DNA from: an uncultured Actinomycetes bacterium
GTDB taxonomy: Bacteria; Actinomycetota; Actinomycetes; Streptosporangiales; Streptosporangiaceae
NCBI GenBank assembly: GCA_963758795.1
Contig: CAVWXG010000002.1
Coordinates: forward strand, 13,762-77,761
DNA length: 64,000 nt
Direction of reading: 5' to 3'
A program made the position numbers and the translations under genes. The notes under the pieces are model-generated. The model was not told where the DNA came from. It did no database searches and worked only from the letters and a program-made list of their open reading frames with translations. Shown piece after piece: positions 2,269 to 22,395 of this stretch (positions within the stretch are counted from its first letter, which is position 1; each line of letters opens with the position of its first letter).

Positions 2269-2507
2269 CGTCTGGTCCTCCCGTTTGCGTCGCCCGGAGC
2301 TCGGGTGAATTCCACGATCGTGTATGAGATCCCTTTTTTCGTCCCGGCTGGCGGCCAATGCGGCTACCGGCCAGCAGGGGGTTGGCCTGCCTGCCAGCCG
2401 GGTGAGGACCCGGGCTGGACGCGCACGCTGAGAGGAACTCGATGCCAGCCGTGCGCCGCACGACGTCGAGCAGGATGAACCGATTGCATCAAGCTCGCAG
2501 TTTTACG

Positions 2508-3878
2508 TCAACCGGTTGCCGGCTCGTACCCGAGGGGAAGCTCCGCTGTGAGGTGTGTCCCGGCCTCGGCCGCGCTGTCGAAGCGGATCGAGCCGCCCAG
2601 GGCCTCGACCCGGTCGGTGAGCCCGGCCAGGCCGGAACCACGAGCGGGATCGGCGCCGCCGATGCCGTCGTCGCGGGCCGACATCCGCGCCCGGGAAGCC
2701 ATCAACTTGGCGCGGCTGTCGGCGTTGGCGATCGCCGTCGCCACCAGCTCGGTGAACGAGGCCAGCCGAACCTCGGTGTCGGCCGGGAGCTGCTGGTCCC
2801 GGGTATAGGCCACCAGGATCAGGCCCCACGGCCGGCCCTCCACGCTGATCGGCACGCCCACCGACGAACGGAAACCCCAGCCGCGAGCGCCCGTGTCCCC
2901 GATGCTGCCCGTGACATTGACATAGGCGTCCAGCCGGGCGGCCCGGCCCGTCCGCAGCGTTAGCGTGCTCACGTTCCGGCCGCCCAGCTCGAACCGGCTG
3001 CCGGCCGGGCTGGGCAGAGCGACGCCGGTGGCCGTCCAGCCGCCCACGACCGTGATCATGTCCTGCGGATCGGACCGGATCAGGACCGTGTAGTCGACCG
3101 CCAGCAGCTCGCCGACCTCCTCGGCCACCGCCGCGAGCACCTCCTGCGGCGGAGTCGCGCGGGCCACCAGCACCGCCACCCGCCGCAACGCGGCCTGCTC
3201 CTCAGCCAGCCGGGCCAGGGCGGCGCGGCTGTCGGCGTTGGCGACCGCCGTCGCCACCAGCTCGGTGAAAGACACCAGCCGGGCCTCGGTGTCCGCCGGC
3301 AGCAGCTCAAGGGTCGAACCAGCGGCGATTAGGCCCCACAGACGGCCCTCGACGATGATCGGCGTCCCGACCGCCGACCGGAGCGCCGCCTCGCGGACGA
3401 CGGCGCCGAGTGCGCCCGAGGAGCTATCAGCGTAGCCGTCGACCCGGGTCGGACGACCGGTCTCGAACACGAGGGTGCCGAGGTTGTGCCCGCCAAGGGT
3501 CCTCCGGGTACCCACTGGAAAGCGGGCCACCGCGCCGCCCCAATGGGCGACGAAAGTAAGCGTGCCGTCGGGCTCGTAGCGGCACATGGTCGCCGAATCG
3601 ACCGGAAGCAGCCGCCCGACCTCCTCGCCCACCGCCGCGAACACCTCTTTCGGCGGAGTCGCCCGGGCTACCAGCGTGGCCACCCGCCGCAGCGCGGCCT
3701 GCTCCTCGGCCAGCTGACCCAGCCGCGCCTGATCGGGTGGGTCACGGCCCACCTCCCCGTCGGGGACACCGGGGGCTAGCGCGCTCACAAGGCGACAGTA
3801 ATCGGGTGCCTGGCGGCCGGCAACGTCAACGGCCCGCAGGACCTGGCCACTTGTGTCCTTGCGCCCGATCGCTGCCAT
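2508..3878 (-). CDS. Tandem GAF-domain sensor derived from a HisKA_3-type histidine kinase; the kinase core is deleted in frame
   Basis: Two GAF modules (..VGTPIIVEGRLWGLIAAGS.. and ..VGVPISVEGRPWGLILVAY..) are each followed by FTELVATA(V/I)ANADSRA. After ASRAR the sequence jumps directly to RDDGIGGADPARGSGLAGLTDRVEALGGSI, the HATPase C-terminal tail. The paralog at 18443..19837 keeps about 190 aa between these points. Confidence 0.7.
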   Translation of the reverse strand: MAAIGRKDTSGQVLRAVDVAGRQAPDYCRLVSALAPGVPDGEVGRDPPDQARLGQLAEEQAALRRVATLVARATPPKEVFAAVGEEVGRLLPVDSATMCRYEPDGTLTFVAHWGGAVARFPVGTRRTLGGHNLGTLVFETGRPTRVDGYADSSSGALGAVVREAALRSAVGTPIIVEGRLWGLIAAGSTLELLPADTEARLVSFTELVATAVANADSRAALARLAEEQAALRRVAVLVARATPPQEVLAAVAEEVGELLAVDYTVLIRSDPQDMITVVGGWTATGVALPSPAGSRFELGGRNVSTLTLRTGRAARLDAYVNVTGSIGDTGARGWGFRSSVGVPISVEGRPWGLILVAYTRDQQLPADTEVRLASFTELVATAIANADSRAKLMASRARMSARDDGIGGADPARGSGLAGLTDRVEALGGSIRFDSAAEAGTHLTAELPLGYEPATG

Positions 3879-3885
3879 CCCGGAT

Positions 3886-3901
3886 TTCCTGCTAGCCGGT
3901 A
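3886..3901. promoter_or_regulatory. 7-2-7 palindromic box TTCCTGC-TA-GCCGGTA
   Basis: Read directly from the sequence. It lies 8 nt upstream of the ATG at 3878 (GAF sensor, minus) and 81 nt upstream of the MFS remnant start (plus). Confidence 0.5.
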
Positions 3902-3981
3902 GCTGAGTTGGCAGCTCGCCGTAAAGACAGCGACACCCTCAGGCGTAGATCGTGGATGGTGACCCCAGGCGGGAGACGCAG

Positions 3982-4182
3982 ATGTCGACGAAGACTGATA
4001 CCAGCGCAGCCGTGGTGCGCAGCCTGATCCCGGCACGGCTGGACCGGCTGCCGTGGACCCGGTTCCACACCAGGCTGATCATGGCGCTGGGCACCGCCTG
4101 GACCCTGGACGGCCTGGAGATAACCCTGGCCGGCGCGGTCGCGGGCGTACTGACCAACTCCGACACGCTGCACATGTCCCCG
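3982..4182 (+). pseudogene. MFS transporter N-terminal remnant
   Basis: MSTKTDTSAAVVRSLIPARLDRLPWTRFHTRLIMALGTAWTLDGLEITLAGAVAGVLTNSDTLHMS matches the first TM region of metabolite:H+ symporter-type MFS proteins. Similarity is lost afterwards, and an unrelated C-terminal fragment follows in another frame. Confidence 0.6.
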
Positions 4183-4337
4183 GCCGTCGCTCCGCTGTCC
4201 AAGGCGGCCTACTCCCCGGGCATGCTGCCCTCGGGGACGAGCACACCATCACCTCCAGCCGCTGGCCGGACGACCTGCCGGCGTTCTGTGCCCGGATCGT
4301 GGAGCGGTTCGCCGCGAGCTCATGATGAGATAGGACC

Positions 4338-5423
4338 ATGGCAGGCAAGACAACGATCACGCATCCGCTGCTTCGACTCGGCCGGCTGCAGCTGGACCCC
4401 GCGCTGCGCGCCCTGCAGCCGGGTTCGGCCGCATCCGGCCTGGTGGTGACGGCCACGGTCGCCGTGCCGGATACGCCGGATGAGGGGTCGTATGCGTGGG
4501 ATGTGGCCTGGGCCGATGCTGCCCGTGAGGCCGGGCGGCTGGGTGCCGATCAGGGCACCGCCCAGGCGCTGGCCATCGGCGCCGGCCAGGCCCAGCCGGG
4601 CGGCACCCGCGTCGTGGTCGCGGCGCACGGGGAGGTTTTGCTCGCCCGGTGGCTCCCGCCCGGGGTCGGCGCGAGTTCGGTGCGGGTGGGCCCGCTGCCG
4701 CACTTGCAGGAGGCGGCAGTGGCCGCGGCGCGGCGGCCGGCTTACGTGGTCGTGCTGGCCGACCGTGACGGCACCGACATCATCGCGCATGCCGGTGGTG
4801 ACCAGCTGCCCGCCAAGCCGTTCTCCGTCGGCCGCCGTCCCGGCGCGCAGAGCGACCCTCATCCGGACCGGCCGCCCGGGCTGCACCACGGCGAGCGGCA
4901 CCTGACCGACAGCGAGCCGGAAAGCGGCGGCCAGCTGAACGCCGAGTTCATCGCCGGGCGCGTGTCCGAGGCCGCGGACAGCGTGGCCGCGCACATTGTC
5001 CTCGGCGCGGGTGATCAGCATATTCTCGACGCTGTCGCGGGTCATCTGCCGGATTCGGTCGGGCCGGTCAGCGCTATCGCAGGAGGCCGCGAGCCCGATG
5101 GCCTCGACGATCACCTCAGCGCCGTGATTGGCGCCGCCCTCGACGAGATCACCGCCGCGGCCATCAGCGCGGTCGGGGATCTGGTGGCCTCGCGCACCGG
5201 GGAGCCGGACCCTGGCGCGGTTCGTGGCCTTGATGCCGTCGCGGATCAGCTGGCCACCCAGCAGGTCGCGGTGCTGCTGGTAGCGGCGGACGTGACCCTG
5301 GAAGACGGCCTGGTCTGGGCCGCGATCCACCAGGACGCGATCATCGCGCAGCTGCCGGAACGCACCGGCCCGCTGGCCGGCGAGGCAGCCGCCGCGTTGC
5401 TCCGCCGCGGGTCTGTCTCGTAA
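4338..5423 (+). CDS. baeRF2 / Vms1-Ankzf1-like (Rv2629-family) protein
   Basis: 361-aa ORF. The block RVVVAAHGEVLLARWLPPGV..SVRVGPLPHLQEAAVAAARRPAYVVVLADRDGTDIIAH parallels my memory of M. tuberculosis Rv2629 (..RALIATGEQVLVNEHLIGPP..RRPTYVFAAVDHTGADVKLY). Confidence 0.55.
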   Translation: MAGKTTITHPLLRLGRLQLDPALRALQPGSAASGLVVTATVAVPDTPDEGSYAWDVAWADAAREAGRLGADQGTAQALAIGAGQAQPGGTRVVVAAHGEVLLARWLPPGVGASSVRVGPLPHLQEAAVAAARRPAYVVVLADRDGTDIIAHAGGDQLPAKPFSVGRRPGAQSDPHPDRPPGLHHGERHLTDSEPESGGQLNAEFIAGRVSEAADSVAAHIVLGAGDQHILDAVAGHLPDSVGPVSAIAGGREPDGLDDHLSAVIGAALDEITAAAISAVGDLVASRTGEPDPGAVRGLDAVADQLATQQVAVLLVAADVTLEDGLVWAAIHQDAIIAQLPERTGPLAGEAAAALLRRGSVS

Positions 5424-7959: not shown

Positions 7960-8165
7960 CCCGCTGCGGATGAGTTCCCTGGCGGGCCGAGCACGCCGCC
8001 GGCCCCGGCGACCGGTTCACCGGCGCGTCCGATGACGAACTCACCGGGATGATCTGCGCGCTGGACCGGGCCGAGGCCGCCGCCTGCGTGCTCAAGCAGG
8101 CCGCCGTCGCCGAGCTCATCCGCCGCCGCCCCGAACCCGGCTGCCCGCCCGAAGGCCCGGCGCAG
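7960..8165 (+). pseudogene. DUF222 (13E12/HNH-associated) protein fragment, frameshifted and truncated
   Basis: ..AEHAAGPGDRFTGASDDELTGMICALDRAEAAACVLKQAAVAELIRRRPEPGCPPEGPAQ is the conserved central DUF222 block. No N-terminal start or HNH part is present. Confidence 0.55.
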
Positions 8166-8211
8166 AGTGCGGCGGCACGCGTATGTATGACTGACGTGGT
8201 ATCGTACGAGT

Positions 8212-8472
8212 ATGACAAACGCGATGACAGTCCGGCTCGACGAGGAGACATCCCGCGAGCTCGCCGAACTCGCCGGGCACTACCCGAGCCGGTCCGCTGC
8301 CATCCAGGACGCCATTCACATTGCGTGGCGGCAACTCCAGGCCGACAAGCTGGAAGCTGGGTACGCTGCCGCGATTGCCGACAACCCGCACTACCCTTAC
8401 GAGTCGGCCGAGGAAGCCGCCGTGCTGCGTGCGCGCCGCCGCGCCCGGCAAGAGCGCGACACGCTCACGTGA
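8212..8472 (+). CDS. Ribbon-helix-helix antitoxin (MazE-like)
   Basis: MTNAMTVRLDEETSRELAELAGHYPSRSAAIQDAI.. Its stop overlaps the toxin start (GTGA). Confidence 0.7.
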   Translation: MTNAMTVRLDEETSRELAELAGHYPSRSAAIQDAIHIAWRQLQADKLEAGYAAAIADNPHYPYESAEEAAVLRARRRARQERDTLT

Positions 8473-8783
8473 CCGCCAGCCCGCAACGAGGCCAGGTCTA
8501 CCGCTGCGACCTCGGCTACGGCCTCAAGCCATGGCTTGTGGTATCCAACAACGCGCGCAACCGCCTGCTCGATGACATCATCGCGATCAGGCTCACCACC
8601 ATGGCGCGTGACCTGCCGACCTGGATCAAGCTCTCCCCGGCCGACCCGCTCACCGGATACGCCAACGCCGACTGCATCGAGCAGCTGGGCAAGGACGAGC
8701 TCGGCGAATACCTCGGCGGCTTGTCACCGGCCTCCATGCGTGGCGTGAACCAGGCCCTGGCGATAGCACTGGCCCTTACCTAA
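8469..8783 (+). CDS. mazF: PemK/MazF-family type II toxin
   Basis: From the GTG at 8469: VTASPQRGQVYRCDLGYGLKPWLVVSNNARNRLLDDIIAIRLTT... Confidence 0.8.
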   Translation: MTASPQRGQVYRCDLGYGLKPWLVVSNNARNRLLDDIIAIRLTTMARDLPTWIKLSPADPLTGYANADCIEQLGKDELGEYLGGLSPASMRGVNQALAIALALT

Positions 8784-8920: not shown

Positions 8921-9030
8921 GCGCGGGTCGGCCGAGGCAGACCTTAACTCGCCTGGCAGGCGCGAGCGCTTGTCTGACCGGGTAGGTAGTGGTTCGCTGT
9001 TCGTGTGAGTTCTGGCGGGAGCGTCGTTGA

Positions 9031-9137
9031 GCGGGGCTTATCGGGCTCGGGGACCGGATCGAGGCGCTCGGCGGCACGCGGCACATCGCCAGCCCGCCCG
9101 GCGGCGGCACCACCCTGCTCATCCAGATCCCAGCCGC
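9031..9137 (+). pseudogene. Histidine-kinase C-terminal tail remnant
   Basis: AGLIGLGDRIEALGGTRHIASPPGGGTTLLIQIPAA follows directly after a TGA; there is no upstream kinase sequence. Confidence 0.5.
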
Positions 9138-9187
9138 CCGCCACGATACCCGAGGCCACCCGGACCATAGACCGGGTGAGCCGGGCA

Positions 9188-9526
9188 TCACACGGTTCTT
9201 GCGATTTGCGGACGCCCATCGTCCGTCGGCCTCCGGTCGTGGTGCCGCTCTAGTTCGGTCAGGCCGCCCCAGATCCCGTGGGCCCGCGTCCGCAGCGCGA
9301 ACTCCAGGCACTGCCGCCGGACCGGGCAGCCTGCGCAGATCGCCTTAGCCTCGGCTATCTGTTCCAGCGACTTACCGGATTCCGAAAGCGGGAAGAACAA
9401 CTCGGGGTCAGCCGATCGGCAGGCGGCAGCCGATCGCCAGCTCGCCCTTGTGACCAGCCGGGCCGGCGTAGCGTAGCCCGAGACCTGGTCCAGCCCGCCG
9501 ACGACCTTGTTGTCGTTGGTTCCCAC
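9188..9526 (-). CDS. WhiB-family transcription factor
   Basis: ..AACRSADPELFFP..AKAICAGCPVRRQCLEFALRTRAHGIWGGLTELER. GTG start is preceded by GGAAGGAG. Confidence 0.9.
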   Translation of the reverse strand: MGTNDNKVVGGLDQVSGYATPARLVTRASWRSAAACRSADPELFFPLSESGKSLEQIAEAKAICAGCPVRRQCLEFALRTRAHGIWGGLTELERHHDRRPTDDGRPQIARTV

Positions 9527-9583
9527 GCTGGCTCCTTCCGTTCGCCTGGTCGCAGCGGATCGGACGACGATCCTGGCAGGACC

Positions 9584-9647
9584 GCTTTCGGGCTGCGCTA
9601 AGCGTTGCTCCTGGCTTGGTGAGCCGGCATCACGCAGTTTGGGTGAT
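9584..9647. repeat. Copy 1 of a roughly 64-bp shared upstream element (core GGCTTGGTGAGCCGGCATCACGCAGT)
   Basis: Aligned by eye with 11977..12040. The 27-nt core matches at 25/27, and a GCTG(C/T)GCTAA block is shared at conserved spacing. Confidence 0.6.
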
Positions 9648-9697
9648 ATCTCACGCTCGGGTGAAGCGGTTGGGACGCACCTGCGCGGTGGAGAAAA

Positions 9698-9713
9698 TTC
9701 CGGCTAGCCGGTA
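9698..9713. promoter_or_regulatory. 7-2-7 palindromic box TTCCGGC-TA-GCCGGTA
   Basis: The inner 12 bp CCGGCTAGCCGG is a perfect palindrome. It lies 28 nt upstream of the LuxR-type gene ATG (9741) and 172 nt upstream of whiB (9526). Confidence 0.55.
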
Positions 9714-9740
9714 GACGCGTTTCATGCCTGCCAGGAAGAC

Positions 9741-11804
9741 ATGACCACTCGCCAAGGGCGATCGTTGGCACGTACGCATAGTGCATCTGCCGATATCACA
9801 GTGAGCGTCATGAGCCCTGCCGTCCGAACCCAGACCGCCGATGCCGAGCCGGCTTCAGTCCCTGCCGTCATGGCAGGGACGGTCTTCCGCCGCGGGCTGT
9901 TCGCGCGGCTCGGGAGAGCCGCGCGCGTCACCCAGCTGTCGGCGCCGGCCGGCAGCGGGAAGACCTTTCTGCTGCGGTCCTGGATCGGCGAGGCGGGGCT
10001 GGCCGATCGCGTGGCCTGGGTTTCGGTGCCGGGCGGGGAACGTGACCCGCAGCGATTCTGGATCTCGGTGGCCGGCGCGCTGCGAGACACCGCGGCGGGG
10101 GCCACGCTGGTGCGGGCCGTGACGGCGGAGCCGGATCTAGACGGCTGGGCGATGGTCGAGCGGCTGCTGGCGGATCTGGGCTCGCTGCGGGACCGGATCT
10201 GGCTGGTGATCGACGATGTGCACGAGCTGGACTCAAGCGAGGCGCTGCGCCAGCTGGAACTGCTGGTGATGCGCGGGCCGGCCGAGCTGCGGTTCGTGCT
10301 CGCCACCCGTCGGGACGTGCGGCTGGGTCTGCACCGGTTGCGGCTGGAGGGGGACCTGACCGAGATCCGCGCCGCCGATCTCCGGTTTACCGCCGACGAG
10401 GCGCAGGCGCTGCTGGCAGCGGCCGGCGTGGCGTTGCCTGCTTCGGCGCTGGCGCTGTTGCACCAGCGGACCGAGGGCTGGGCGGCCGGGCTGCGGCTGG
10501 CTGCACTGTCGCTGGCCGGGCACCCGGATCCGGGCCGGATCGCGGCCGAGTTCTCTGGCAGCGAGCGCACGGTCGCCGAGTACCTGCTGGCCGAGGTGCT
10601 GGAGCGCCAGCCGGAGGAGGTCCGGCAGCTGCTGCTGCGGACCTCTGTGCTCGACCAGGTCAACGGCCCGCTGGCCAATGTCCTGTGCGGACGGTCGGGC
10701 GGCGAACAGGTTTTGCAGGAGCTGGAACAGGCTGGCACGTTCGTGGTCGCGGTGGATGCACGCCGGTCCTGGTTCCGCTACCACCAGATGTTCGCCGACA
10801 TGCTGCAACTCCAGCTACGGCGCAGCGCGCCGGGTGAACTTTCCGCGCTGCATAGCATCGCCGCCGGGTGGTATGCCGAGCACGGGCACGCGGTCGAGGC
10901 GGTCCGCCATGCCCAGGCCGCGCAGGACTGGAGCCTGGCTGCTCGCCTGCCCGGTCTTGTCCTCAACGGGCAGGGCGCCACCGCGCGCGAGCTCCTGGCC
11001 GGATTCTCGGCCAGTGCCGTTACGGCCGATGCGGAGCTGGCCACGCTGCGGGCGGGCTACGAGGTGACCGATGGGTCGCTGGAGGCGGCGGAGCGGAAGC
11101 TGGCCCCCGCCAACGCCGCGGACGCCGCGGACGCCGCGCCACTGGTGCAGGGGGCTGGGGAGGACCTGCGGACACTGGCGCTGGTCAGCCTAGGTGCCGC
11201 CGAGCTCTGGTTTCTTCGCACCGAAGAGGCGGAACGGCACCTCGAGCAAGCCGTCGCCCCGGCGCACCGGATCGGGCGGCCCTTCCCCGAGGCCGGTGCC
11301 TTGGCACACGGTGCGTGGGCGGCAGGCGTCCGGTCGTTCGCGCTCGCGGTCGACCGGAGCACGCAGGCGACCGAGCTGGACCGACGGCATGGCTGGACCG
11401 AGGAGCCGATCGTTGCCGTCGCTTATCTGGCCCTCGGGGTCACCAGGGTCTGGCAAATGCGGCTCGAAGAGGCGGAGCCGTTGCTGGACCACGCCGAGCT
11501 GCAGGGGAGTCTGGGGGGATGGCATCCCCCCAGAAGCGGGAGGGGCTGGGGGGGTCGTCCCCCCGAAGAAAAACAGCTAAAACTTCTAAGAGAGCCGCTC
11601 ACCGACAGCGAGACCCGCGTCCTGCGCTACCTGCCGACCAACCTGTCCGCGCCGGAGATCGCGGGCCAGCTGTCCGTGTCGGTGAACACCGTCCGGACCC
11701 ACATGCGCCACGTGTACGAGAAGCTCGGCGCGCACCGTCGTGCGGGTGCCGTGGAGCGGGCCCGCGTCCTCGGCCTGCTCGCCCCTTCCCCGCGCCGGGC
11801 CTGA
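9741..11804 (+). CDS. MalT/LuxR-type large regulator (P-loop NTPase, helical repeats, C-terminal LuxR HTH)
   Basis: Walker A ..[16 protein letters not shown].. The C-terminus is ..[46 protein letters not shown]. Confidence 0.85.
11497..11592 (+). repeat. In-frame G6/C6 hairpin-module insertion inside the LuxR-type gene
   Basis: CTGGGGGGAT-GGC-ATCCCCCCAG (11511..11533) has a perfect 10-bp stem. It is followed by G7-TCGT-C6 and then a low-GC tail GAAGAAAAACAGCTAAAACTTCTAAGAGAG. It translates as [28 protein letters not shown] just before the HTH. Confidence 0.6.
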
Positions 11805-11821
11805 GGCTTCCCGGCCCGAAG

Positions 11822-11962
11822 AAGATCGGCGTGTCGTTGCCGACCACGTCGTAGTTGCCCTCGGCGGTGTAGAGCTTAATCGCGACGCCGCGGATACTCG
11901 TCGCTCTCAACCGGAATGCCGGCATCCGTCGTCTGAATCGGGTTGGGTCGCGTTCTGGTCAT
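11822..11962 (-). pseudogene. Catalase remnant (N-terminus joined out of frame to an internal segment, then truncated)
   Basis: [23 protein letters not shown].. with RBS GAAGGAG, followed in another frame by ..[25 protein letters not shown]. In intact catalases these two blocks are about 90 aa apart. Confidence 0.65.
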
Positions 11963-11976
11963 GTAGATCTCCTTCG

Positions 11977-12040
11977 ATTGCTTCGCTGTGCTAACCCTCA
12001 CGCCCGGCTTGGTGAGCCGCCATCACGTAGTCCTGATGAT
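11977..12040. repeat. Copy 2 of the roughly 64-bp shared upstream element (core GGCTTGGTGAGCCGCCATCACGTAGT)
   Basis: See 9584..9647. This copy lies upstream of the catalase remnant start. Confidence 0.6.
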
Positions 12041-12070
12041 TTGCGTCGGCCGCCCGCTCGCGGTCAAGGG

Positions 12071-12439
12071 TTATAGCCGCCGGCCGAGGATCCGGCTTAT
12101 CGCCTGCGCCGACAGCTCCGGCTTCACCAAGAATCCGGCCGCCGGGCTTTCGGCGATCAGCTCCGCATAGTCGGTTTCGGCGCGCGCCGAGATCAAGATC
12201 ACCTCGGCGCGGCCGGCCTGCCCGTCCTGGGCCAGGAGCCGGGTCAGGTCAAAGCCGCTCTCGCTGCCGAGCCCGATGTCGACCAGGATGACGTCCGGCC
12301 GCAGCACGCGGGCCTGCCGGAGCGCCCCGGCGCTGTCCGAGGCCACGCCCACCACCGTCACGCCGTCTCGCTGCAGCAGAACACTCGCCGCCTTGAGGAA
12401 GGCGTCGCTGTCATCAACCAGCAGGCACCGTATCGACAC
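12071..12439 (-). CDS. Single-domain response regulator (receiver only)
   Basis: ..CLLVDDSDAFLKAASVLL..RPDVILVDIGLGSESGFDL..; GTG start. Confidence 0.85.
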   Translation of the reverse strand: MSIRCLLVDDSDAFLKAASVLLQRDGVTVVGVASDSAGALRQARVLRPDVILVDIGLGSESGFDLTRLLAQDGQAGRAEVILISARAETDYAELIAESPAAGFLVKPELSAQAISRILGRRL

Positions 12440-12473
12440 GCGCTCATGGTGCCAGGTATACCTTGCGGTCGCA

Positions 12474-12489
12474 TTACGGCTAGCAGGAA
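12474..12489. promoter_or_regulatory. 7-2-7 palindromic box TTACGGC-TA-GCAGGAA, with an adjacent everted pair CCAGGTA-TACCTTG at 12452..12465
   Basis: Read directly. It lies 35 nt upstream of the receiver gene GTG (12439). Confidence 0.5.
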
Positions 12490-12529
12490 TTCCGCTGTGG
12501 TTCCCGCAGCGGACGGCGGCGTGGGGAGC

Positions 12530-13307
12530 TCACGTCCTGGCCTCATCCGTCCGCAGGTCGAAGAGCTGGCGCAGCGCGTCGAGGTAGACAGGCCCGTCCG
12601 GGCCAGCCGAGAACTGTTTGGCCCGGACGGTCGGCTGGTGCAAGATCTTGCGCAAGATGCGGTGCACGGTGGCCGCCGTCTCGGCCCGCTGCTGGTCGCT
12701 GAGGTCCGGGAGCCGGTCGTGCAGCCGGGCCAGCTCGGCGTCCGCGAGCTGCCTGATCTGCGCGTGCATCGCGGCGATGACGGGCGCCGCGATCGCCTGG
12801 TCCTGCCGGGCAGTGTACGCCGCGGCCTCGGCGGCGACGATCGCGCGGACCTGGGGGATCTGGCTCGGTACCGCCCGGTCGGCCAGGTGCCAGCCCAGGG
12901 CGGCGATATCCACGAGCGTCAGGCCGGCCAGCCGCCCCACGGCGGGGTCCACGTCGGGTGGCATGCCCAGGTCAAGCACGACCAGCGGCCGACCGCCGAC
13001 CCGGGCCCGGGCGGCGCGCAACTGCCCGGCGAGCACGACGGGGGCGGCGGCGCCGGTCGCGGTGACCAGGAGGTCGGCGTCGACGAGCGCGGCAGGCGAC
13101 CGCCCGGGCTACCGGTCCGGCCGGGCCGTGCGCGGCCGCGTAGACCTCGACCCGGTTGCAGGTCGACAAGACGGCCACCTCGTCGACGGACGGCACAGCG
13201 TGCAACCGGGCCAGCACACTGCCACGTTGTGCAGCCGGAACAGCCAGCTTCTCAAGTGTCTCCGGCGTCGCGATCCGGTGGGAGACGCCGAGATTCACGA
13301 TCGTCAT
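12530..13307 (-). pseudogene. hemA: Glutamyl-tRNA reductase (hemA-like) with an internal deletion and frameshift
   Basis: N-terminus MTIVNLGVSHRIATPETLEKL..VLSTCNRVEVYA (ORF 12972..13307). The C-terminal part ..LVVLDLGMPPDVDP..RQLADAELARL..HQPTVRAK.. is in another frame (ORF 12530..13036). Total length is about 259 codons against about 440 expected. Confidence 0.7.
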
Positions 13308-13386
13308 CGCGGTGACCGTCTAGTCTCGTGAGCTTCCGCGTCCGGGTCGTGGCCGAAGCTCGGCCCGTGACGCCATGACGCCACGA

Positions 13387-13713
13387 TCAGCTCGCGAGAG
13401 CGAGTGGTCGCACCCTCGGAGCTGGGGTCATTGCGGGCAGCGGATAGACCTTGCGGATCGTCGCCAGCGCCCAGCACATCCTGGCGGCCGCGGTGTCCGG
13501 GTGGTCGCCGAACTCGCCGGCCATCCGGGCCGCACAGCCGCCGCTTCCCAGCCGCCGCAGCGTCGTCGCGACGGCGGCGCGGATCTGGTGGGGCGAGGTC
13601 GAGCCGGAAGGCTGCAGGGTCGACGCGAACAGCGCCTCGGCCCGGACCGCCTCGAACGTGCGCGACATCTCGCATTCGGCAAGCGATGTCTTGGCCGTCG
13701 CAATCTCCGCCAT
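13387..13713 (-). CDS. Conserved actinobacterial hypothetical protein
   Basis: MAEIATAKTSLAECEMSRTFEAVRAEALFASTLQPSGSTSPHQIRAAVATTLRRLGSGGCAARMAGEFGDHPDTAAARMCWA.. resembles a recurrent small family of unknown function. ATG at 13713 has the [11 protein letters not shown]. Confidence 0.55.
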   Translation of the reverse strand: MAEIATAKTSLAECEMSRTFEAVRAEALFASTLQPSGSTSPHQIRAAVATTLRRLGSGGCAARMAGEFGDHPDTAAARMCWALATIRKVYPLPAMTPAPRVRPLALAS

Positions 13714-13823
13714 GACTCTCGCCTCGCTTCCTTCGACGTTTGCGGCCACTGGGTTCGCGCCGCATGTTCTCCAGCTTCGCGGTCGGGCCCGGTTATGTCT
13801 TCGCAGCCAGCGGCCAGCCCGGC

Positions 13824-13839
13824 TACCTGCCACCAGGTA
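13824..13839. promoter_or_regulatory. 7-2-7 variant box TACCTGC-CA-CCAGGTA, followed by TACGGGAATTCCCGC
   Basis: The outer half-sites are exact reverse complements. GGGAATTCCC is a perfect 10-bp palindrome immediately 3-prime. Confidence 0.45.
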
Positions 13840-13887
13840 TACGGGAATTCCCGCCAGCAATAGGGGCCGTGCGGGTCAGCTGATTCT

Positions 13888-14601
13888 TTAGCGGGTTTCG
13901 AGGAACCTGAGGACGGCCAGGACCCGCCGGTGCTCGGTCTCGCTTTCCGGCAAGTCGAGCTTGGTCAAGATCGCCCGGACATGCTTTTCCACCGTGCCCT
14001 CGGTCACGAAAATCCGCCGCGCGATACCCGCGTTCGACGCGCCCTCCGCCATCAAAGCGAGCACCTCGCGCTCCCGAGGCGACAGCACATCCAGCGGATC
14101 ACGACGCCGCCGCACCCGGATCAGCTCCTGCACCAGCGACGGATCCACCACCGACCCGCCCGCCGCGATCCGCCCCACCGTCTCGATGAACTCCGCCACA
14201 TCCGTCACCCGGCTCTTCAGCAGATACCCGGTACCCTGCCCGCCGGCCAGCAGCTCCATCGCCTCCTCCACCTCCACATGAGCCGACAGCACGATGATCG
14301 CCGTACCCGGCAGCTCCGCCCGGATCACCCGCGCCGCCTGCAGCCCCTCGGTGGCATGCCCCGGCGGCATCCGGATGTCAATGATCGCCACCTCCGGCCG
14401 CACCGACCGGACCAGCGCCACCAACTCAGGCCCGGTCCCGGCCTGCCCCGCCACCTCAAACCCGGACCGCTCCAGCAAACTCGCCAGGCCCTCACGCAAC
14501 AGCACATCATCATCGGCCAGCACAACCCGGGACCCAGCCCGGCCCGCCGCCGCCGCCGCCGCTATCTCTGGAGATGTCACCACCCCCCGATTATCGGTCA
14601 C
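13888..14601 (-). CDS. NarL/FixJ-family response regulator (receiver plus LuxR-type HTH)
   Basis: ..RVVLADDDVLLREGLASLL..AIIDIRMPP.. and ..LSPREREVLALMAEGASNAGIARRIFVTEGTVEKHV.. Confidence 0.9.
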   Translation of the reverse strand: MTDNRGVVTSPEIAAAAAAGRAGSRVVLADDDVLLREGLASLLERSGFEVAGQAGTGPELVALVRSVRPEVAIIDIRMPPGHATEGLQAARVIRAELPGTAIIVLSAHVEVEEAMELLAGGQGTGYLLKSRVTDVAEFIETVGRIAAGGSVVDPSLVQELIRVRRRRDPLDVLSPREREVLALMAEGASNAGIARRIFVTEGTVEKHVRAILTKLDLPESETEHRRVLAVLRFLETR

Positions 14602-14786
14602 GGGCAGCCGCCCGCGGCAGGGTCTGCAGCAGCGGGCGTGAGTGTTCTCTTTTTCCCTGTGCCCAGTCGGTGACAGTCACGAGTCCGCATCCTTCCATTC
14701 CCGGTCGTTCCGATATACCGTGCTGCTTGTCGCCAACAATTGCGCATCGCCGTGGCCCTGTCCTTACCGAACCCGCCCGGACCCGC

Positions 14787-14802
14787 TACCTGCTAGCTGG
14801 TA
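14787..14802. promoter_or_regulatory. 7-2-7 palindromic box TACCTGC-TA-GCTGGTA
   Basis: Sits in the divergent spacer between the NarL-type RR (start 14601) and the aldo/keto reductase (start 14951). Confidence 0.5.
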
Positions 14803-14812
14803 AGGCCGGACG

Positions 14813-14847
14813 GCCGCCACCGTCCCCCCACCACGGGGGCTGGCGGC
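14813..14847. repeat. C6/G5 hairpin module GCCGCCACCGTCCCCCC-ACCAC-GGGGGCTGGCGGC
   Basis: Read directly; it is an imperfect extended stem. Confidence 0.5.
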
Positions 14848-14950
14848 GATGCCGCGGCACACCCCGGTCGGCCATGCTAACCGCGCAGTCGAATATCAAC
14901 CATAGGCCCGGCCGGGCAGGCCGGCCAGACGGCGATAAGGGAGAACCACG

Positions 14951-15982
14951 ATGACTACTTCTCTGCCCACTATCCGACTGGGCCGCACCGGCATGGAGCT
15001 GACCCGGGTCGGGTTCGGGGCCTGGGCCATCGGCGGCGGCGGCTGGGCCTTCGCCTGGGGCTGCCAGGACGACGCCGAGTCGATCGCCGCCATCCGCACC
15101 GCGGTGGGGTCCGGAGTGAACTGGATCGACACCGCCGCCGTCTACGGGCTCGGCCATTCCGAGGAAGTGGTCGCCGCCGCGCTGGCCGGCTTCCCCGAGT
15201 CGGACCGGCCGTACGTGTTCACCAAGGGTGGCCTGGTCTGGGACCCGGCCGACCGGACCGCGGCGCCGCGCCGGGTGGGCGCCCCGGCCAGCCTGCGGGC
15301 CGAGGTCGAGGCCTCGCTGCGGCGGCTGCGGGTGGACCGGATCGACCTGTACCAGATGCACTGGCCCGCCGAAGACGGCACCCCGGTGGAGGAGTACTGG
15401 CAGGTCTTCGCCGACCTCAAGCGCGAAGGCAAGGTCCGCGCGATCGGGCTGTCCAACCACTACATCTGGCAGCTGGATGAAGCCGAACCCGTCGCGGCCG
15501 TGGACGCCATCCAGCCCCAGTTCAGCCTGATCCACCGCGACGCCGCCAACGACGTGCTGCCGTGGGCCCACGAGCACCACACCGGCGTCATCGTCTACAG
15601 CCCGATGGCCTCCGGCCTGCTCACCGGCGCCTTCACCGCTGCCCGGGCCGCCACCCTGGACCCCGGCGACTGGCGCCGCGGCCACCCCGACTTCACCGAG
15701 CCCGCCCTGACCGCCAACCTGGCCCTGGCCGCCGCGCTGGACCCGGTCGCCGAGCGGCACGGCGTCACCCCCGCCGCCGTCGCGGTCGCCTGGACCCTGT
15801 CCTTTCCCGCCGTCACCGGCGCTATCGTCGGCGCCCGGACACCGCAGCAGGTCAGCGGCTGGCTGCCCGCCGCGACCCTGGAGCTGAAGGAAGACGACCT
15901 GGCCGAGATCGCCGCCGCCGTCCACGCCACCGGGGCCGGCACCGGACCCGCAGCACCACCTGCCGCTCCCCCGTCCCAGTAA
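14951..15982 (+). CDS. Aldo/keto reductase
   Basis: ..[49 protein letters not shown].. Confidence 0.9.
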
Positions 15983-16017: not shown

Positions 16018-16019
16018 GG

Positions 16020-16307: not shown

Positions 16308-17768
16308 TCAGGTTCCGCTTTCCACGCTCGCGGCGAGCGGCAGGCGGAGGTGAAACGCGGCCCCCCGGCCGGGCTGGGAGTCGACGGTGATGTCTCCGCC
16401 GTGGGCAGCGGCCAGCGAAGCCGCGATCGACAGGCCGAGCCCGGCGCCACCGCGGGCACGCGTCCTGGCGTCGTCGGTCCGGTAGAAGCGCTCGAATACG
16501 CGCGCGGCCTGTTCCGCGGTCATCCCGGGCCCGTTATCCGCGACGATGACCTCCCCGAGGCCGGTGGTACCGGTCACGGACACGGTGACCGCAGCGCGCG
16601 GCGGGGTGTGCTGGGCGGCGTTGCCGATCAGGTTATCGATGACCTGCCGCAGCCGTTCGGTATCGGCGTAGACGATGACCGGGTCGCCGTCCAGCAGGGT
16701 GATCGGGCGGTCCGGGTTGACGATGCGGGCGGCCTGGACCGCCTGCGCCGCGATGCTGGCCAGGTCGACGTGGCGTCGGTCCAGCGGGCGGTCGGTGTCG
16801 AATCTAGCCAGCAGGAGGAGGTCCTCCACCAGCCGCCCCATCCGGCCGGCCTCGTGCTGGATGAGGGTCATCAGCCGCAGCAGTTCGGTGGGACTGGCCG
16901 CGGTGCCCTGCTGCAAGCCGAATTCGGCCAGTCCCCGCACCGATGTCAGCGGCGTGCGCAGCTCATGGCTCGCGTCGGCGACGAACTGCCGCATCCGGTC
17001 TTCGGACCGCAGCGCCCGTGCCTCGCCGTCCGCGCGGGCCCGGTACGCGGTCTCCAGCTGGCCGAGCATGGTGTCCAGGGCATCCGCGAGCCGGCCCACC
17101 TCGGTGCCGCCGGACCGATGGTCGATGCGCCGCGACAGGTCACCACGCGCAATCGCCGCGGCCGTCGCCTCGATCCGGCTGAGCGGTGCCAGGCTGGCGC
17201 GCACCAGCGGCAGCCCCACGACGGCCAGCACCGCGATGGCGATCGCCCCGGCCAGCGCGTCCGCGATCTCCAGCCGGGTGACGGTGCTGTTCAGATCATC
17301 GAGGCTGAAGGCGACGACCGCGTGCCGACCGCCGGAGAGCGGCCGCACCAGGACACGCCACGAGTGCGCGGGCGCGTCGGCCGCCGGCGCGGTGAACGGG
17401 TTCCCCTCGTCTGCGAGTTGCGCAGCGGACAGCTTCGGGGCGCCGGCATCGTGCGGTGGTGTCTCCGCCGTCTGGACCTGGCCGTCCGCGCTGACCACCT
17501 CGACCAGGAACTGAGTCGGCAGGGTCGGCTGCTGACCACTTGGCCGAACGGGCAGGTGTGATTGCTCAAGAACGCGGCTGGTGACCACGGCGAAGTCGCT
17601 TAGCTGGGCGTCGGCGCGGTCATACAGGTAACTGCGCAGCAGCGCCGTGCCGAGCAAGCCGGTCACCAGCGAGGTCAGGGCGACGAGGATGGCGGCGGCC
17701 GCCATCACCCTGGCCCGCAGCGACGCGCCCGCCAGGACTCGCCGTGGCCGGCCCGGCCACGTCCTCAC
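16308..17768 (-). CDS. Sensor histidine kinase (TM-HAMP-HisKA-HATPase)
   Basis: ..[18 protein letters not shown].. and ..[29 protein letters not shown].. GTG at 17768 overlaps the RR stop (GTGA). Confidence 0.9.
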
Positions 17769-18430
17769 GGCGGCGGAATCCGCAGGACATAGCCGACCCC
17801 GCGGATGGTGTGAATCAGGTGTGGCTCCCCCTGGTCGACCTTGCGCCGCAGGTAGCTGACGCAAGGCTCGACCACATTGCCGTCGCCGGCCGGGTTGTGG
17901 TCCCAGACATGATCAAGTATCTGCCGCTTGGACAGGACCCGGCCGGCGTTGAGCATCAGGTACCGCAGCAGCCGGAACTCGGTGGGCGTCACCGCGATGA
18001 CGGTGCCATCCCGCCTGACCTCGTGGCCGTCTTCGTCGAGTTCCAGGCCGGCCACGCGCAGCCGCGAGGTCGCGGCCGGACGGCCGGTGCGCCGCAGCAC
18101 CGCCCGGATGCGTTCCAGCACCTCGTCCAGGCTGAACGGCTTGGTGATGTAGTCGTCACCGCCCAGCGCCAGGCCGGCCACTCGCTCGCGGACACCGTCC
18201 CGAGCGGTCAGGAAGATGACCGGAACATCCGGGCCGGCCGACCGCATCCGGCGCATCACCTCGAACCCGTCGCCGTCCGGCATCATGATGTCCAGCAGGA
18301 CCAGGTCGGGCCGTGACGCCGCCACGGCGCGCAGCGCGTCGGCACCGCTGGCCGCGGTCGTCACCTCGAATCCGGCGAACCGGAGCGATCCAGACAGCAG
18401 TTCCAGGATCGTTTGCTCGTCCTCGACCAC
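17765..18430 (-). CDS. OmpR/PhoB-family response regulator
   Basis: ..VVEDEQTILELLSGSLRFAGFEV..PDLVLLDIMMPDGDG.. with a winged-helix C-terminus. The only start codon (GTG 18430) falls inside the conserved LLVVEDE strand; see findings. Confidence 0.8.
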   Translation of the reverse strand: MVEDEQTILELLSGSLRFAGFEVTTAASGADALRAVAASRPDLVLLDIMMPDGDGFEVMRRMRSAGPDVPVIFLTARDGVRERVAGLALGGDDYITKPFSLDEVLERIRAVLRRTGRPAATSRLRVAGLELDEDGHEVRRDGTVIAVTPTEFRLLRYLMLNAGRVLSKRQILDHVWDHNPAGDGNVVEPCVSYLRRKVDQGEPHLIHTIRGVGYVLRIPPP

Positions 18431-18442
18431 GAGCAGCCCCGC

Positions 18443-19837
18443 GACCGTCTTGCGGACCGGCCAGGCCGCCCGGGTCGACTACCGCGAAGTACCCGGCGGG
18501 GAGCGCTTCGTCCATGAGGGGCTGCGGTCCGCGGTCGGCACGCCGATCCACGTCGAGGGTCGGCTGTGGGGGATGATCGCCGTCGGGTCAAGGCAGGAGA
18601 CATTGCCGCCCGACACCGAGCACCGGATGACGCAGTTCACCGACTTGGTCGCGACCGCGGTCGCGAACGCGCAAAACCGGGGCGCGCTGGAGGCGAGCCG
18701 TGACGAGCTCGCTCGCCTACTGGCGGAGCAGGCCGCGCTGCGCCGGGTCGCCACGCTGGTGGCTCGCGGTATCGACCCGGTCGAGATCTTCTCGGCGGTC
18801 GCCGGGGAATTCGGCCGCCTGCTTGACGCGGACAACGCCGGCATCAGCCGCTTCGACCCGGATGGGCCCTCGGTCGTGATCGTCGGCAGCGTCGGGGAGG
18901 ACGCGGCCACGGTGCCGATCGGGACGCAGGTGGAAATCCCCGACTACTTTGCCGTGGCGGTGGTATGGCGGACCGGCCGCTCGGCCCAGGTCGACGAGGA
19001 CATGTGGGACGGACTCCCGGGCCCGGCCGCCGACCGGCTGCGCAAGCTGGGAATCCGCTCGATGGTGGCGAGCCCGATCATCGTCGAGAGCCGCCTGTGG
19101 GGCGTGGTGAACGTGTCGTCCAGGCAAGGGCCGTTTCCTGCCGACGCCGCCGACCGCCTGGCGGACTTCACCGAACTCCTCGCCACGGCCGTCGGGAACG
19201 CCGAGAGCCAGGGCGAGCTGGCCGCGTCGCGGGCACGGGTCGTGACGGCTGCGGATCAGGCCCGGCGGCGGATCGAGCGGGACCTGCACGACGGGACCCA
19301 GCAGCGCCTGGTCTCGCTCGGCCTGGAGCTTCGCCTCACGCAGTCCATGGTGCCTGCCGGGCTGCCCGAGCTCAAGACGGAGATCGGCCGGGTCGCGGAC
19401 GAGCTCACCGGGGTGGTAGAGGACCTGCGGGAGATCGCCCGCGGCATCCACCCGGCGATCTTGTCCGAAGGCGGGCTGGGGCCGGCCCTGCGGACGCTGG
19501 GCCGCCGGGCCGCGGTCGCGGTCGAGCTCGAGGTGGCCGGGAGTACCCGGCTGCCGGAGCCGGTCGAGGTAGCCGCGTATTACGTCGTCTCCGAGGCGCT
19601 CACCAACGCGACCAAGCACGCGCACGCCACAGTCGTGCGCGTCGCGGTCGAGGAACGGGACGACGGCCTGCACCTGTCGGTTCGCGACGACGGCGCGGGC
19701 GGCGCCGATCCCGCCCGCGGTTCGGGCCTGATCGGCCTCCGCGACCGGGCCGAAGCGCTGGCGGATCGCTCGAGATCAGCAGCCCGCCGGGCGAAGGGAC
19801 CCTGATGAGTGTCCAGCTCCCACTGCAGCTCCACTGA
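18443..19837 (+). pseudogene. GAF-GAF-HisKA_3-HATPase sensor kinase (DevS/DosT-like architecture), 5-prime truncated and frameshifted near the 3-prime end
   Basis: Recognisable sequence begins mid-GAF (..VLRTGQAARVDY..VGTPIHVEGRLWGMIAVGS). It has a full DHp ..ERDLHDGTQQRLVSLGLEL.. and an ATP-binding domain. After ..RDRAEAL the tail GGSLEISSPPGEGTLMSVQLPLQLH continues in the -1 frame (ORF 18965..19837). Confidence 0.75.
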
Positions 19838-20870: not shown

Positions 20871-20989
20871 GCCAGCACGCGGCGGTCACGACGCGTACGC
20901 GGTTCGCGATCGCCCCGGCTGCATGAGTGGCTCGGGTTGCGGTAAGAGCGCGGACCCGGGTCGGGCTCACGCCGGACCGGTTCAGCCGG

Positions 20990-21268
20990 TCAGCGCGGCA
21001 CCGGTGCGCGCCGCAGGGCGTGCCGTTCTTCCTCTGTCGTGCCGCCCCAGATGCCGGAAACCTGTCCGAGGTCCAGGGCCCAGCGCAGGCACGGTGTTGT
21101 CACCGGGCAGCGCTGGCATACCCGCTTGGCCGCCTCGATGTCGGTCAGGGACGCGCCGGACGTACTAATCGGGAAGAACAGGTCAGGATCCAGCCGGCTG
21201 CAGGCGGCGTGATCACGCCAGTTCGTGCACTCGGCCCCGGTCGAGCGCCATCGGTTTGCCGCCGCCAT
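20990..21268 (-). CDS. WhiB-family transcription factor
   Basis: ..HAACSRLDPDLFFP..AKRVCQRCPVTTPCLRWALDLGQVSGIWGGTTEEER. The start is either ATG 21268 or the upstream ATG 21349. Confidence 0.85.
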   Translation of the reverse strand: MAAANRWRSTGAECTNWRDHAACSRLDPDLFFPISTSGASLTDIEAAKRVCQRCPVTTPCLRWALDLGQVSGIWGGTTEEERHALRRAPVPR

Positions 21269-21378
21269 CTCGCCACCTCCTCGGTGCTGCCTCACCCTCC
21301 TCGACGATCTCGCAGTGCCCGGCCTGGTCACATCGGTGCCAGCGGCCATCCGGGTCCCCCACTAGCCGGATCCGCGGT

Positions 21379-21394
21379 TACCTGCTAGCCGGTA
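21379..21394. promoter_or_regulatory. 7-2-7 palindromic box TACCTGC-TA-GCCGGTA
   Basis: Lies 30 nt upstream of ATG 21349 (whiB frame) and 58 nt upstream of ATG 21452. About 45 bp on its right side is about 80% identical to the flank of the box at 3886. Confidence 0.55.
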
Positions 21395-21451
21395 GCGGAG
21401 TTTGGCGCTCGCCGTGACGACATAGCGCCCGGAACACGTCATGATGGGGCC

Positions 21452-21883
21452 ATGACGGAGGACGCGATGATCTCGCTGCTGTCGGCGGCCACCCGCATCG
21501 CCTGCGGGAAGATGACCCCGCAGCACCTCAACGCGCTGCACGCCAGCGTCGAGCAGGCCTCCTGCCTGCCGGCCAGGCCTGACTGGGAGCGCAAGGCCAC
21601 CGCGCACGCCGAGCTGTTCACCCTGCTGGGCGACCTGACCGGTGACGGCGACCTGGCGCAGCTGGTGAGCTCGGCGGCCGGGCGGCTGCAGGACCTCGTC
21701 CTGACGGTCGGCCCGGCGGCCGATGGCATCATCTTGAGCTCGCGCCGCAGGCTGCTGCGCGAGTTGAGGGCCTGGGACGCCGACGGCGCGGCTCAGGAGG
21801 TGGAGCGCCACCTCGGCGGCCTGAACTACATGGGACGCGTGGCGGGCGGAGCCGGTTCCGGCAGGCTTAGCCGGGCCAGCTAG
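21452..21883 (+). CDS. FCD-domain protein (GntR/FadR C-terminal domain only, no wHTH)
   Basis: The helical pattern ..LNALHASVEQA..AHAELFTLLGDLTGDGDLAQLV..RRRLLRELRAWDADGAAQEVERHL is consistent with an FCD domain. At 143 aa it is too short to include the DNA-binding domain. Confidence 0.55.
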   Translation: MTEDAMISLLSAATRIACGKMTPQHLNALHASVEQASCLPARPDWERKATAHAELFTLLGDLTGDGDLAQLVSSAAGRLQDLVLTVGPAADGIILSSRRRLLRELRAWDADGAAQEVERHLGGLNYMGRVAGGAGSGRLSRAS

Positions 21884-21930
21884 CCGTCAGCGGCCGTCGC
21901 CGTCAGCGGCCCTCGGCGTCAGCGGCCCTC
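21883..21930. repeat. Three tandem 16-bp units GSCGTCAGCGGCCSTC spanning the convergent stops of the FCD and ankyrin genes
   Basis: CGTCAGCGGCC occurs at 21885, 21901 and 21917. The ankyrin stop (TGA) is inside the third unit. Confidence 0.9.
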
Positions 21931-22200
21931 GAAGAGCGCGACCGGGTCGTCCAGGCCGAACAGCCGGGCGGTCTCGATAGCCGACGGGCTCCCCGCGGTG
22001 GGGTCGGCGCCGCGTTCCAGCAGGACCGAGACCGTCTGCGCGTGACCGTGGTAGGCAGCGAGCATGACCAGGGCGTCGCCCTTGTCGTTGCAGAGGTTGG
22101 CCGGAACGCCGGCATCCACATAAGCGGCCAGGGTGCCGGTGTCGCCCTGACGGGCGAGGTTGAAGACCTTCGCGGCGAACTGGAGGTTGGCCGGGTCAGG
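21919..22200 (-). pseudogene. Ankyrin-repeat protein lacking a start codon and about one repeat
   Basis: PDPANLQFAAKVFNLARQGDTGTLAAYVDAGVPANLCNDKGDALVMLAAYHGHAQTVSVLLERGADPTAGSPSAIETARLFG.. The first in-frame start (GTG 22119) lies inside the first repeat. LLERGADP..GSPSA looks like a fusion of two repeat ends. Confidence 0.5.
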
Positions 22201-22379
22201 CCTGCTTGGTCTCCCAGAAGATCTTGCCGATCTCCTCGATCTTGGTCAGCAGCTGGTCGGCTACGGCCGGGTCGGGGCTGCCCTTGGTACCCGAGGACCC
22301 GGCCAGCTTGGTGGCCTCGTTGAACAGCTCGTTCAGCTGCGGACGGGGGTGCGTCTTTCCCGCAGGCGGCCAACTTCAG

Positions 22380-22395
22380 TTCCGGCTAGCGGGTA
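22380..22395. promoter_or_regulatory. 7-2-7 palindromic box TTCCGGC-TA-GCGGGTA
   Basis: Read directly; it lies 159 nt upstream of the cupin gene ATG (22554). Confidence 0.45.

Follow-up and report, generated by a model that had tools for sequence, protein, structure and literature searches.

A 64,000-nucleotide stretch of DNA from an uncultured Actinomycetes bacterium of the family Streptosporangiaceae (contig CAVWXG010000002.1; hereafter the window, with a G+C content of about 70%) carries in its first 23 kb several copies of a 16-bp palindrome that consists of two inverted heptamers separated by a 2-bp gap (7-2-7). Our analysis revealed that this palindrome is enriched far above chance in the window and in related loci, that it is linked in both directions to a module of signalling genes, and that it stands at fixed distances from promoter-like elements. 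The module comprises a NarL-type response regulator (RR), a single-domain receiver (REC) and a sensor kinase, and the palindrome is very likely its operator. The overall explanation that we favour, and consider likely, is that the palindrome is the operator of the NarL-family RR encoded at positions 13888-14601.

Palindrome copies in the window and in related loci

Five exact matches to TWCCNGCTAGCNGGWA were found in the window (3886, 9698, 14787, 21379 and 22380), with 0 expected from 100 dinucleotide-preserving shuffles; allowing two mismatches added the copies at 12474 and 13824, which gives seven matches against 0.34 expected (Table 1). A position weight matrix (PWM), trained solely on sites of other genomes with the window sites excluded, scored six of these copies at 19.1-27.7 bits; in simulated 64-kb sequences, which served as its null, the maximum per sequence had a mean of 11.7 bits and a largest value of 18.2 bits. 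The family consensus given by this matrix is aTT[C/G]CnGCTAGCnG[G/C]AAt, with the heptamer TTSCNGC and a near-invariant centre GCTAGC. All seven copies listed in the initial annotation were located. Six of them remain clear copies; the copy at 13824, directly 3' of the RR gene and inside decayed DNA, is treated as degenerate, because its score is borderline and the near-invariant core is broken twice. A weaker copy proposed at 2365 scored 4.9 bits, within the noise of the matrix, and has to be dropped. Downstream of 24 kb a single borderline match was seen (26708-26723, TTCCGGTCACCAGCAA, 13.5 bits); the restriction to the first 23 kb therefore holds. The 26708 match lies at the 5' end of a hydrolase open reading frame (ORF), just downstream of a LytR-family gene, and may be a chance occurrence or a weak outlying site.

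Table 1. Palindrome copies and neighbouring features in the window (HTH, helix-turn-helix; CDO, cysteine dioxygenase; TPP, thiamine pyrophosphate)
Feature	Position	Strand	Remarks
TPP enzyme (poxB-like)	532-2358
GAF-GAF protein, kinase paralogue	2508..3878	-	Pfam
Strong copy TTCCTGCTAGCCGGTA	3886..3901		Exact match; 23.2 bits; GAF-GAF gene (-) on one side, MFS-like fragment ORF then Rv2629-family gene (+) on the other
Weak secondary copy	3909..3924		8.3 bits; 23 bp from the 3886 copy
MFS-like fragment ORF	3952-4449	+	N-terminus MSTKTD...LDRLPWTRFH..., similarity then lost
Rv2629-family (baeRF) protein	4338-5423	+
WhiB-family gene	9188..9526	-	Pfam; WhiB target cluster; candidate target of the 9698 site
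Strong copy TTCCGGCTAGCCGGTA	9698..9713		Exact match; 24.5 bits; between WhiB 9188-9526 (-) and the MalT-like LuxR gene (+)
MalT-like AAA+/LuxR regulator, GerE HTH	9741..11804	+	Pfam, NCBIfam; candidate target
Single-domain receiver (REC)	12071..12439	-	Pfam, Response_reg only
Predicted extended -10 of the REC gene, TGgcAccaT	12446..12454	-	GTG (12439) 6 nt further
Strongest copy TTACGGCTAGCAGGAA	12474..12489		27.7 bits; promoter of the receiver-only gene
hemA-like (glutamyl-tRNA reductase paralogue) pseudogene	12533..13307	-	Two-frame alignment
Degenerate copy TACCTGCCACCAGGTA	13824..13839		15.4 bits; two mismatches in the GCTAGC core
NarL/FixJ-type response regulator (RR), receiver + GerE HTH	13888..14601	-	Pfam
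Strong copy TACCTGCTAGCTGGTA	14787..14802		Exact match; 22.2 bits; between the RR gene (-) and the aldo/keto reductase gene (+)
Aldo/keto reductase	14951..15982	+	Pfam; candidate target
GAF-GAF-HisKA_3-HATPase sensor kinase	18216..19805	+	Pfam
WhiB-family gene	20990..21349	-	Pfam; WhiB target cluster; candidate target of the 21379 site
Strong copy TACCTGCTAGCCGGTA	21379..21394		Exact match; 21.2 bits; between WhiB 20990-21349 (-) and the FCD-domain gene (+)
FCD-domain protein	21452-21883	+
Ankyrin-repeat protein	21919-22245	-
Strong copy TTCCGGCTAGCGGGTA	22380..22395		Exact match; 19.1 bits; between the ankyrin-repeat gene (-) and the CDO-like gene (+)
CDO-like protein	up to 23063	+	Pfam

For comparison with relatives, 80 genome loci with 10-kb flanks (1.28 Mb in total) were picked by homology to RR (67-86% identity); they belong to Streptosporangiaceae, Kribbella, Jiangella, environmental Mycobacterium, Frankiales, Acidimicrobiia, Thermoleophilia and others. 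These loci contain 82 copies of TWCCNGCTAGCNGGWA with at most one mismatch, against 0-2 in second-order Markov simulations. In their count matrix, conservation is confined to the 16-mer and one base on each side (a...t); since the flanks beyond +/-1 nt are unconserved, the copies are not part of a longer repeat. When the pattern was slightly relaxed, 137 copies were obtained, 114 of which fall in the 15.5% of the DNA left uncalled as coding. Of the 83 copies in the full-length loci (43 in number), 27 lie within the single kilobase after the RR gene, and the peak of the copies is in the promoter of the REC gene.

Linkage to a signalling module and promoter geometry

Homologues of REC and of the GAF-GAF-HisKA_3 kinase were each found in 47 of the 80 loci, and the region of the acceptor Asp is conserved in REC. 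Gene maps show a usual layout in which the kinase gene is adjacent to or divergent from the RR gene, the REC and RR genes are convergent, and the motif lies in the REC promoter; in mycobacterial loci a GAF kinase gene, transcribed divergently, uses the same promoter region as REC. Judged by gene content and order, a cytoplasmic GAF-GAF-HisKA_3 kinase, a NarL-type RR and REC form a conserved module across Actinomycetota. The window is looser in its organization: RR, REC and the full-length kinase are spread over 8 kb and are not adjacent. The kinase at 18216-19805 is the likely partner of RR.

Candidate target families were defined as clusters of genes immediately downstream of the copies across loci. 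The receiver-only gene is the most conserved target of the motif. RR or receiver genes were found in this position in 27 loci, followed by GAF kinases (12 loci), aldo/keto reductases (7), 6PGDH-like dehydrogenases (5), MIP channels (4), WhiB (3), HD-domain proteins (3) and catalase (2). Copies upstream of RR orthologues and of aldo/keto reductase genes were found again in other loci, and the site at 14787, which lies between genes of these two kinds, is a candidate autoregulatory site of RR. In one locus (L006) the WhiB and FCD-domain targets are the same as at 21379 in the window. The hemA-like gene, a pseudogene in the window, is intact in relatives and has a motif copy upstream of it in L006, a position by which it is a predicted regulon member there.

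The linkage was also approached from the motif alone. Metagenome contigs were scanned with TTCCNGCTAGCNGGAA only, and 120 stretches were retrieved; many of the contigs that bear the module are just 1-3 kb long. Among the 38 stretches with a G+C content of at least 0.64, nine have a gene for an RR homologue (63-89% identity) next to the site and a further five have one for REC or the kinase, whereas none of the 82 stretches of lower G+C content encodes any module gene. By our own estimate, a gene present about once per genome is expected in well under 1% of random stretches of such size. With module genes in 14 of 38 stretches against this estimate, the link between motif and module therefore holds in both directions.

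Two promoter layouts were recognized. In about 24 promoters of REC orthologues, which represent several orders and no fewer than two classes, 34-36 nt separate the end of the site from the start codon, and the 12474 site of the window ends 34 nt before the GTG start of REC; in mycobacterial loci the site ends 46-52 nt before the REC start, with GGAGG in between. Both sets of REC promoters contain TGnnAnnnT 19-20 nt after the site, which corresponds to an extended -10 element with its key A-11 and T-7. Over all sites, TGnnAnnnT was seen at offsets 19-20 in 43 of 272 site flanks, against 0-1 at most other offsets and at most 3 at any, and, of 136 sites, 62 have AnnnT at offset 23/24 on one side or both, compared with 7-18 sites at control offsets. 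By these distances the site of the first layout is centred near -42.5, in place of a -35 element. As the GTG of the window REC gene lies only 6 nt past its predicted -10 element, its transcript is predicted to be leaderless, and the geometry implies leaderless mRNA for many other REC genes.

AnnnT is also frequent at offsets 46/47 (37 sites), a second peak that marks the second layout. Counted in the same way, the site of this layout has its centre near -65.5 and precedes a -35-like hexamer: nnGACa is found 22 nt after the site and a -10-like hexamer 18 nt further. This layout is followed by the sites 3886 (+ side), 9698 (+ side), 14787 (- side, RR gene) and 21379 (+ side); at 3886, for example, AAGACA stands 22 nt after the site on the + side and GATCGT 18 nt further. 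Weaker secondary copies occur 23-24 bp (17 pair entries) or 46-47 bp (8) from strong ones and at none of the neighbouring spacings. They were found in L002, L005, L011, L012, L039, L061, L075 and other loci, as well as in the window (3886/3909), and their phasing suggests cooperative arrays of dimers.

Some other readings of the sequence around the sites were considered. A sigma-54-like interpretation of the recurrent element CTGGCnnCGATGC was rejected on the GG-to-GC spacing and because Actinobacteria are not known to have sigma-54; a third weak core at 46-47 bp plus a -10 hexamer accounts for the element better. An extracytoplasmic-function (ECF)-type promoter (GGAA-N17-CGT) was likewise rejected, as CGT does not recur consistently downstream and the motif is symmetric. 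Finally, AAGGAC was rejected as a Shine-Dalgarno sequence because it has no constant spacing to start codons; its position, 18 nt before nAnnnT, agrees with that of a -35-like hexamer.

Candidate binder and alternative explanations

The product of 13888-14601 is a response regulator of the NarL/FixJ type by its Pfam domains (Response_reg, E = 1.6e-16; GerE, E = 2.5e-14). Among 80 RR homologues, the recognition-helix segment EGTVEKHV and the acceptor Asp (AIIDIRMPP) are at least 95% conserved, and the stability of the motif across classes is matched by this conservation of the recognition helix. A 7-2-7 palindrome linked to the RR gene is consistent with a dimer that binds an inverted repeat. 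Because the conserved module has no other DNA-binding protein, RR is proposed as the binder of the palindrome, an assignment that we hold with good confidence. Since both site layouts are activator-type positions, RR may well activate transcription of its targets, which seems fairly likely.

From these observations we infer a scheme that covers the binder, the direction of regulation, the feedback and the type of signal. The GAF domains of the kinase would sense a ligand or redox signal and thereby control phosphorylation of RR, a dimer of which would occupy the 7-2-7 inverted repeat and at times also a second, weaker site at a distance of 23-24 bp. Phosphorylated RR would activate transcription from either layout: at REC and similar promoters the site would replace the -35 element next to an extended -10, often giving leaderless mRNA, and elsewhere it would act from near -65.5, upstream of the -35-like nnGACa. 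Putative targets in the window are RR, REC, the two WhiB genes, the aldo/keto reductase, the MalT-like regulator, the FCD-domain, CDO-like and ankyrin-repeat proteins, and the GAF-GAF paralogue. Receivers acting as phosphate sinks exist in other two-component systems. Here, induced REC would drain phosphate from the kinase and limit the response, so that its induction is probably a negative feedback.

Several points weigh against this explanation. The link between RR and the motif rests on co-localization, and 27 of the 80 loci have no copy at up to one mismatch. The loci were selected through RR, which is a bias on which the reverse test is the sole check, and genes in them were called by a home-made GC3 (third-codon-position G+C) caller, so distances to start codons are approximate. 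In the window, several sites depart from the activation layouts on one side: the site at 3886 is only 8 nt from the annotated ATG of the GAF-GAF gene, the site at 9698 is 28 nt from the ATG of the longest ORF of the MalT-like regulator, and the WhiB side of 21379 has no clean -10 element, and some of the predicted -10 hexamers lack the final T.

The same short distances, together with the 30 nt between 21379 and the WhiB ATG, would suit a scheme in which RR binds but mainly represses, its sites occluding promoters or 5' ends until a change in phosphorylation relieves them; the weak third-position cores 46-47 bp from strong sites would also overlap the -10 or spacer of promoters of the distal-site type. 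We regard this as unlikely: the commonest geometry has the site exactly in the -35 place, with an extended -10 and no -35, and the second has it in an activator position upstream of a -35-like hexamer. The close start codons, moreover, are uncertain. The initial annotation had placed three copies 28-35 nt from a start codon, which is true of the longest ORFs. In the ENA gene call, however, the MalT-like regulator has 644 aa against 687 aa for the longest ORF, and its start is therefore about 129 nt downstream (approximately 9870) of the ATG near 9698, while the WhiB start at 21349 is uncertain. Less probable still is that the palindrome belongs to another regulator and the RR module is one of its targets. 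The MalT-like LuxR protein, with its GerE HTH, adjoins a strong site and had been named beside RR as a possible binder, and an unlinked conserved factor would be compatible with co-localization. The part of the earlier proposal that concerns RR is supported, as RR, REC and the kinase co-occur with the motif. The LuxR protein is rejected as the binder, since all 80 loci lack a homologue of it; among DNA-binding proteins, RR alone accompanies the motif both in the loci chosen through RR and in the stretches retrieved by the motif, and a dimeric 7-2-7 palindrome suits a NarL-type HTH. An origin of the copies as a dispersed repeat or a miniature inverted-repeat transposable element (MITE), as a restriction or methylation target (GCTAGC) or by chance is negligibly probable. 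The core is indeed a 6-bp palindrome with the rare CTAG, and all copies are within 20 kb; yet no copies are expected by chance, only 6 of the 14 GCTAGC hexamers of the window carry the full motif, and the motif is kept upstream of orthologous genes across classes. The unconserved flanks and the fixed phasing to -10-like elements refute this explanation.

The preferred binder, RR, can be compared with several characterized regulators. In Escherichia coli, the NarL/NarP heptamer is TACYYMT. Both systems have two inverted heptamers with a 2-bp gap and a dimer of a receiver + GerE-type HTH protein as the binder (predicted here); several window copies likewise have outer TACC...GGTA, and sites are single or in phased arrays near promoters. 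The likeness to NarL sites noted in the initial annotation thus extends to the 7-2-7 layout but not to the sequence, since the family-wide heptamer is TTSCNGC with a GCTAGC centre. Further differences are the host phylum, the lack of a link to nitrate genes here, and the kinases, which are NarX/NarQ in one case and a soluble GAF-GAF protein in the other. RR did not approach the cut-offs of NCBIfam equivalogs (NarL, 94.2 bits with a cut-off of 250; NarP, 80.4 bits with a cut-off of 343). MacRS of Streptomyces coelicolor also has a NarL-type RR and a 7-2-7 box, TGAGTACnnGTACTCA, and its kinase MacS is not known to have a GAF sensor. It is similar in being an actinobacterial NarL-type RR with a palindromic 7-2-7 operator, and differs in the sequence of the box; the match of the window kinase to the MacS-family model is weak and partial (22.5 bits with a cut-off of 300).

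The closest parallel in architecture is with DosR/DevR-DosS/DosT of Mycobacterium tuberculosis and OsdR/OsdK of S. coelicolor, which likewise combine a NarL-type RR with a GAF-GAF-HisKA_3 kinase (PMC5069765, PMC4082495). They also share a palindromic box clustered round the regulator gene, autoregulation and proximal sites over the -35 region (the last two predicted here), and the local gene content, with an Rv2629-family gene, looks stress- or dormancy-like; a poxB-like gene is also nearby. The best solved-structure match of RR is DevR (3C3W). A divergent dormancy regulon of this family, with the palindrome as a drifted DosR box, is nonetheless very improbable. The match to DevR is weak (88 bits), those to VraR and NarL being at least as good, and RR reached none of the NCBIfam equivalog cut-offs. 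In the DosR-DNA complex bases are contacted by Lys179, Lys182 and Asn183 (PMC4082495), and RR has Gly, Glu and Lys at these positions in the alignment to 3C3W. The box of OsdR, the Streptomyces orthologue of DevR, is the 16-bp AGGGCCGATCGGCCCT (PMC5069765), which with up to two mismatches has 4 matches in the window against 11.7 expected and is thus not enriched. The enriched motif differs in sequence from the DosR/OsdR boxes (TTSGGGACTWWAGTCCCSAA / AGGGCCGATCGGCCCT), as the initial annotation had held for the DosR/DevR box. The kinase, compared with PDB sequences by phmmer, matched DevS and DosT weakly and through the ATP-binding domain only (E = 2.7e-7 and 8.6e-5), and its GAF domains had no match to the DosS/DosT haem-GAF entries in this sequence-level comparison. 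A conserved REC under the motif is a feature of the present module. Membership in the DosR/OsdR group is largely refuted by these sequence comparisons; the system appears to work like a NarL/DosR-type circuit while belonging to neither orthologous group.

Neighbouring genes and biological meaning

The gene classes that the initial annotation had recognized around the copies (a GAF protein, two WhiB proteins, a MalT-like LuxR regulator, receiver-only and NarL-type regulators, an aldo/keto reductase and a CDO-like protein) agree with Pfam. Several genes of the module or regulon are decayed in the window, which matches an ENA metagenome contig. The GAF-GAF protein at 2508-3878 has no His-box (DHp), and in tblastn its kinase homologues cover only the GAF parts and the last approximately 95 residues; it is probably either a kinase-dead sensor or the product of a decaying gene. 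The ORF 3952-4449, downstream of the 3886 site, is likely a gene fragment, and the Rv2629-family gene that follows it on the same strand could be co-transcribed with it. In the hemA-like pseudogene, residues 1-64 and 238-425 of the L004 and L006 orthologues align in two frames, with approximately 65-237 lost. A 34-residue remnant of the C-terminus of a GAF kinase (50-65% identical) is encoded at 9031-9132 (+), near a WhiB gene, in DNA to which nothing else could be assigned.

The regulator-rich region also includes the ORF 8049-8783 (+), with a C-terminal PemK/MazF toxin domain (residues 146-240) and no motif copy nearby. Another, unrelated pair of two-component genes, for a HAMP kinase and an OmpR-type regulator, is located at 16308-18430, between the aldo/keto reductase and GAF kinase genes; the longest ORFs of the OmpR-type regulator and the GAF kinase overlap by approximately 214 nt, and one of the two starts is therefore mis-set. 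A megablast search of 9000-15000 against a plasmid collection gave no match.

All 7,999 RR homologues scored at E <= 1e-40, from a family abundant in soil metagenomes, bear generic names only, such as 'DNA-binding NarL/FixJ family response regulator'. Several close homologues are named 'serine/threonine-protein kinase PknK' by one source, probably by annotation transfer via the LuxR-type C-terminal region. No description of the operator or regulon was found in the freely accessible full-text literature, in which motif strings and descriptors of the system turned up cloning primers or unrelated systems only; within this literature the operator and regulon appear to be undescribed, as had been supposed.

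The RR family is very abundant in soil metagenomes and 67-86% identical across Actinomycetes, Acidimicrobiia and Thermoleophilia, with no function or operator found for it. A sharp operator, a fixed promoter geometry and a short recurrent target list make a directly testable regulon, and the motif lets annotators predict co-regulated genes in uncultured Actinomycetota. The system would be a further case of a two-component system with a proposed feedback receiver, and not a new kind of mechanism. As a tentative possibility, a phylum-wide, previously unrecognized three-component system (GAF kinase, NarL-type regulator and feedback receiver) may run a compact stress/redox regulon. If so, this regulon would include WhiB, catalase, aldo/keto reductases, a hemA paralogue, an aquaporin and an Rv2629-like hibernation factor, one operator would serve at two fixed activator positions, and soil Actinomycetota, including environmental mycobacteria, would possess a second, DosR-independent 'dormancy-like' circuit.

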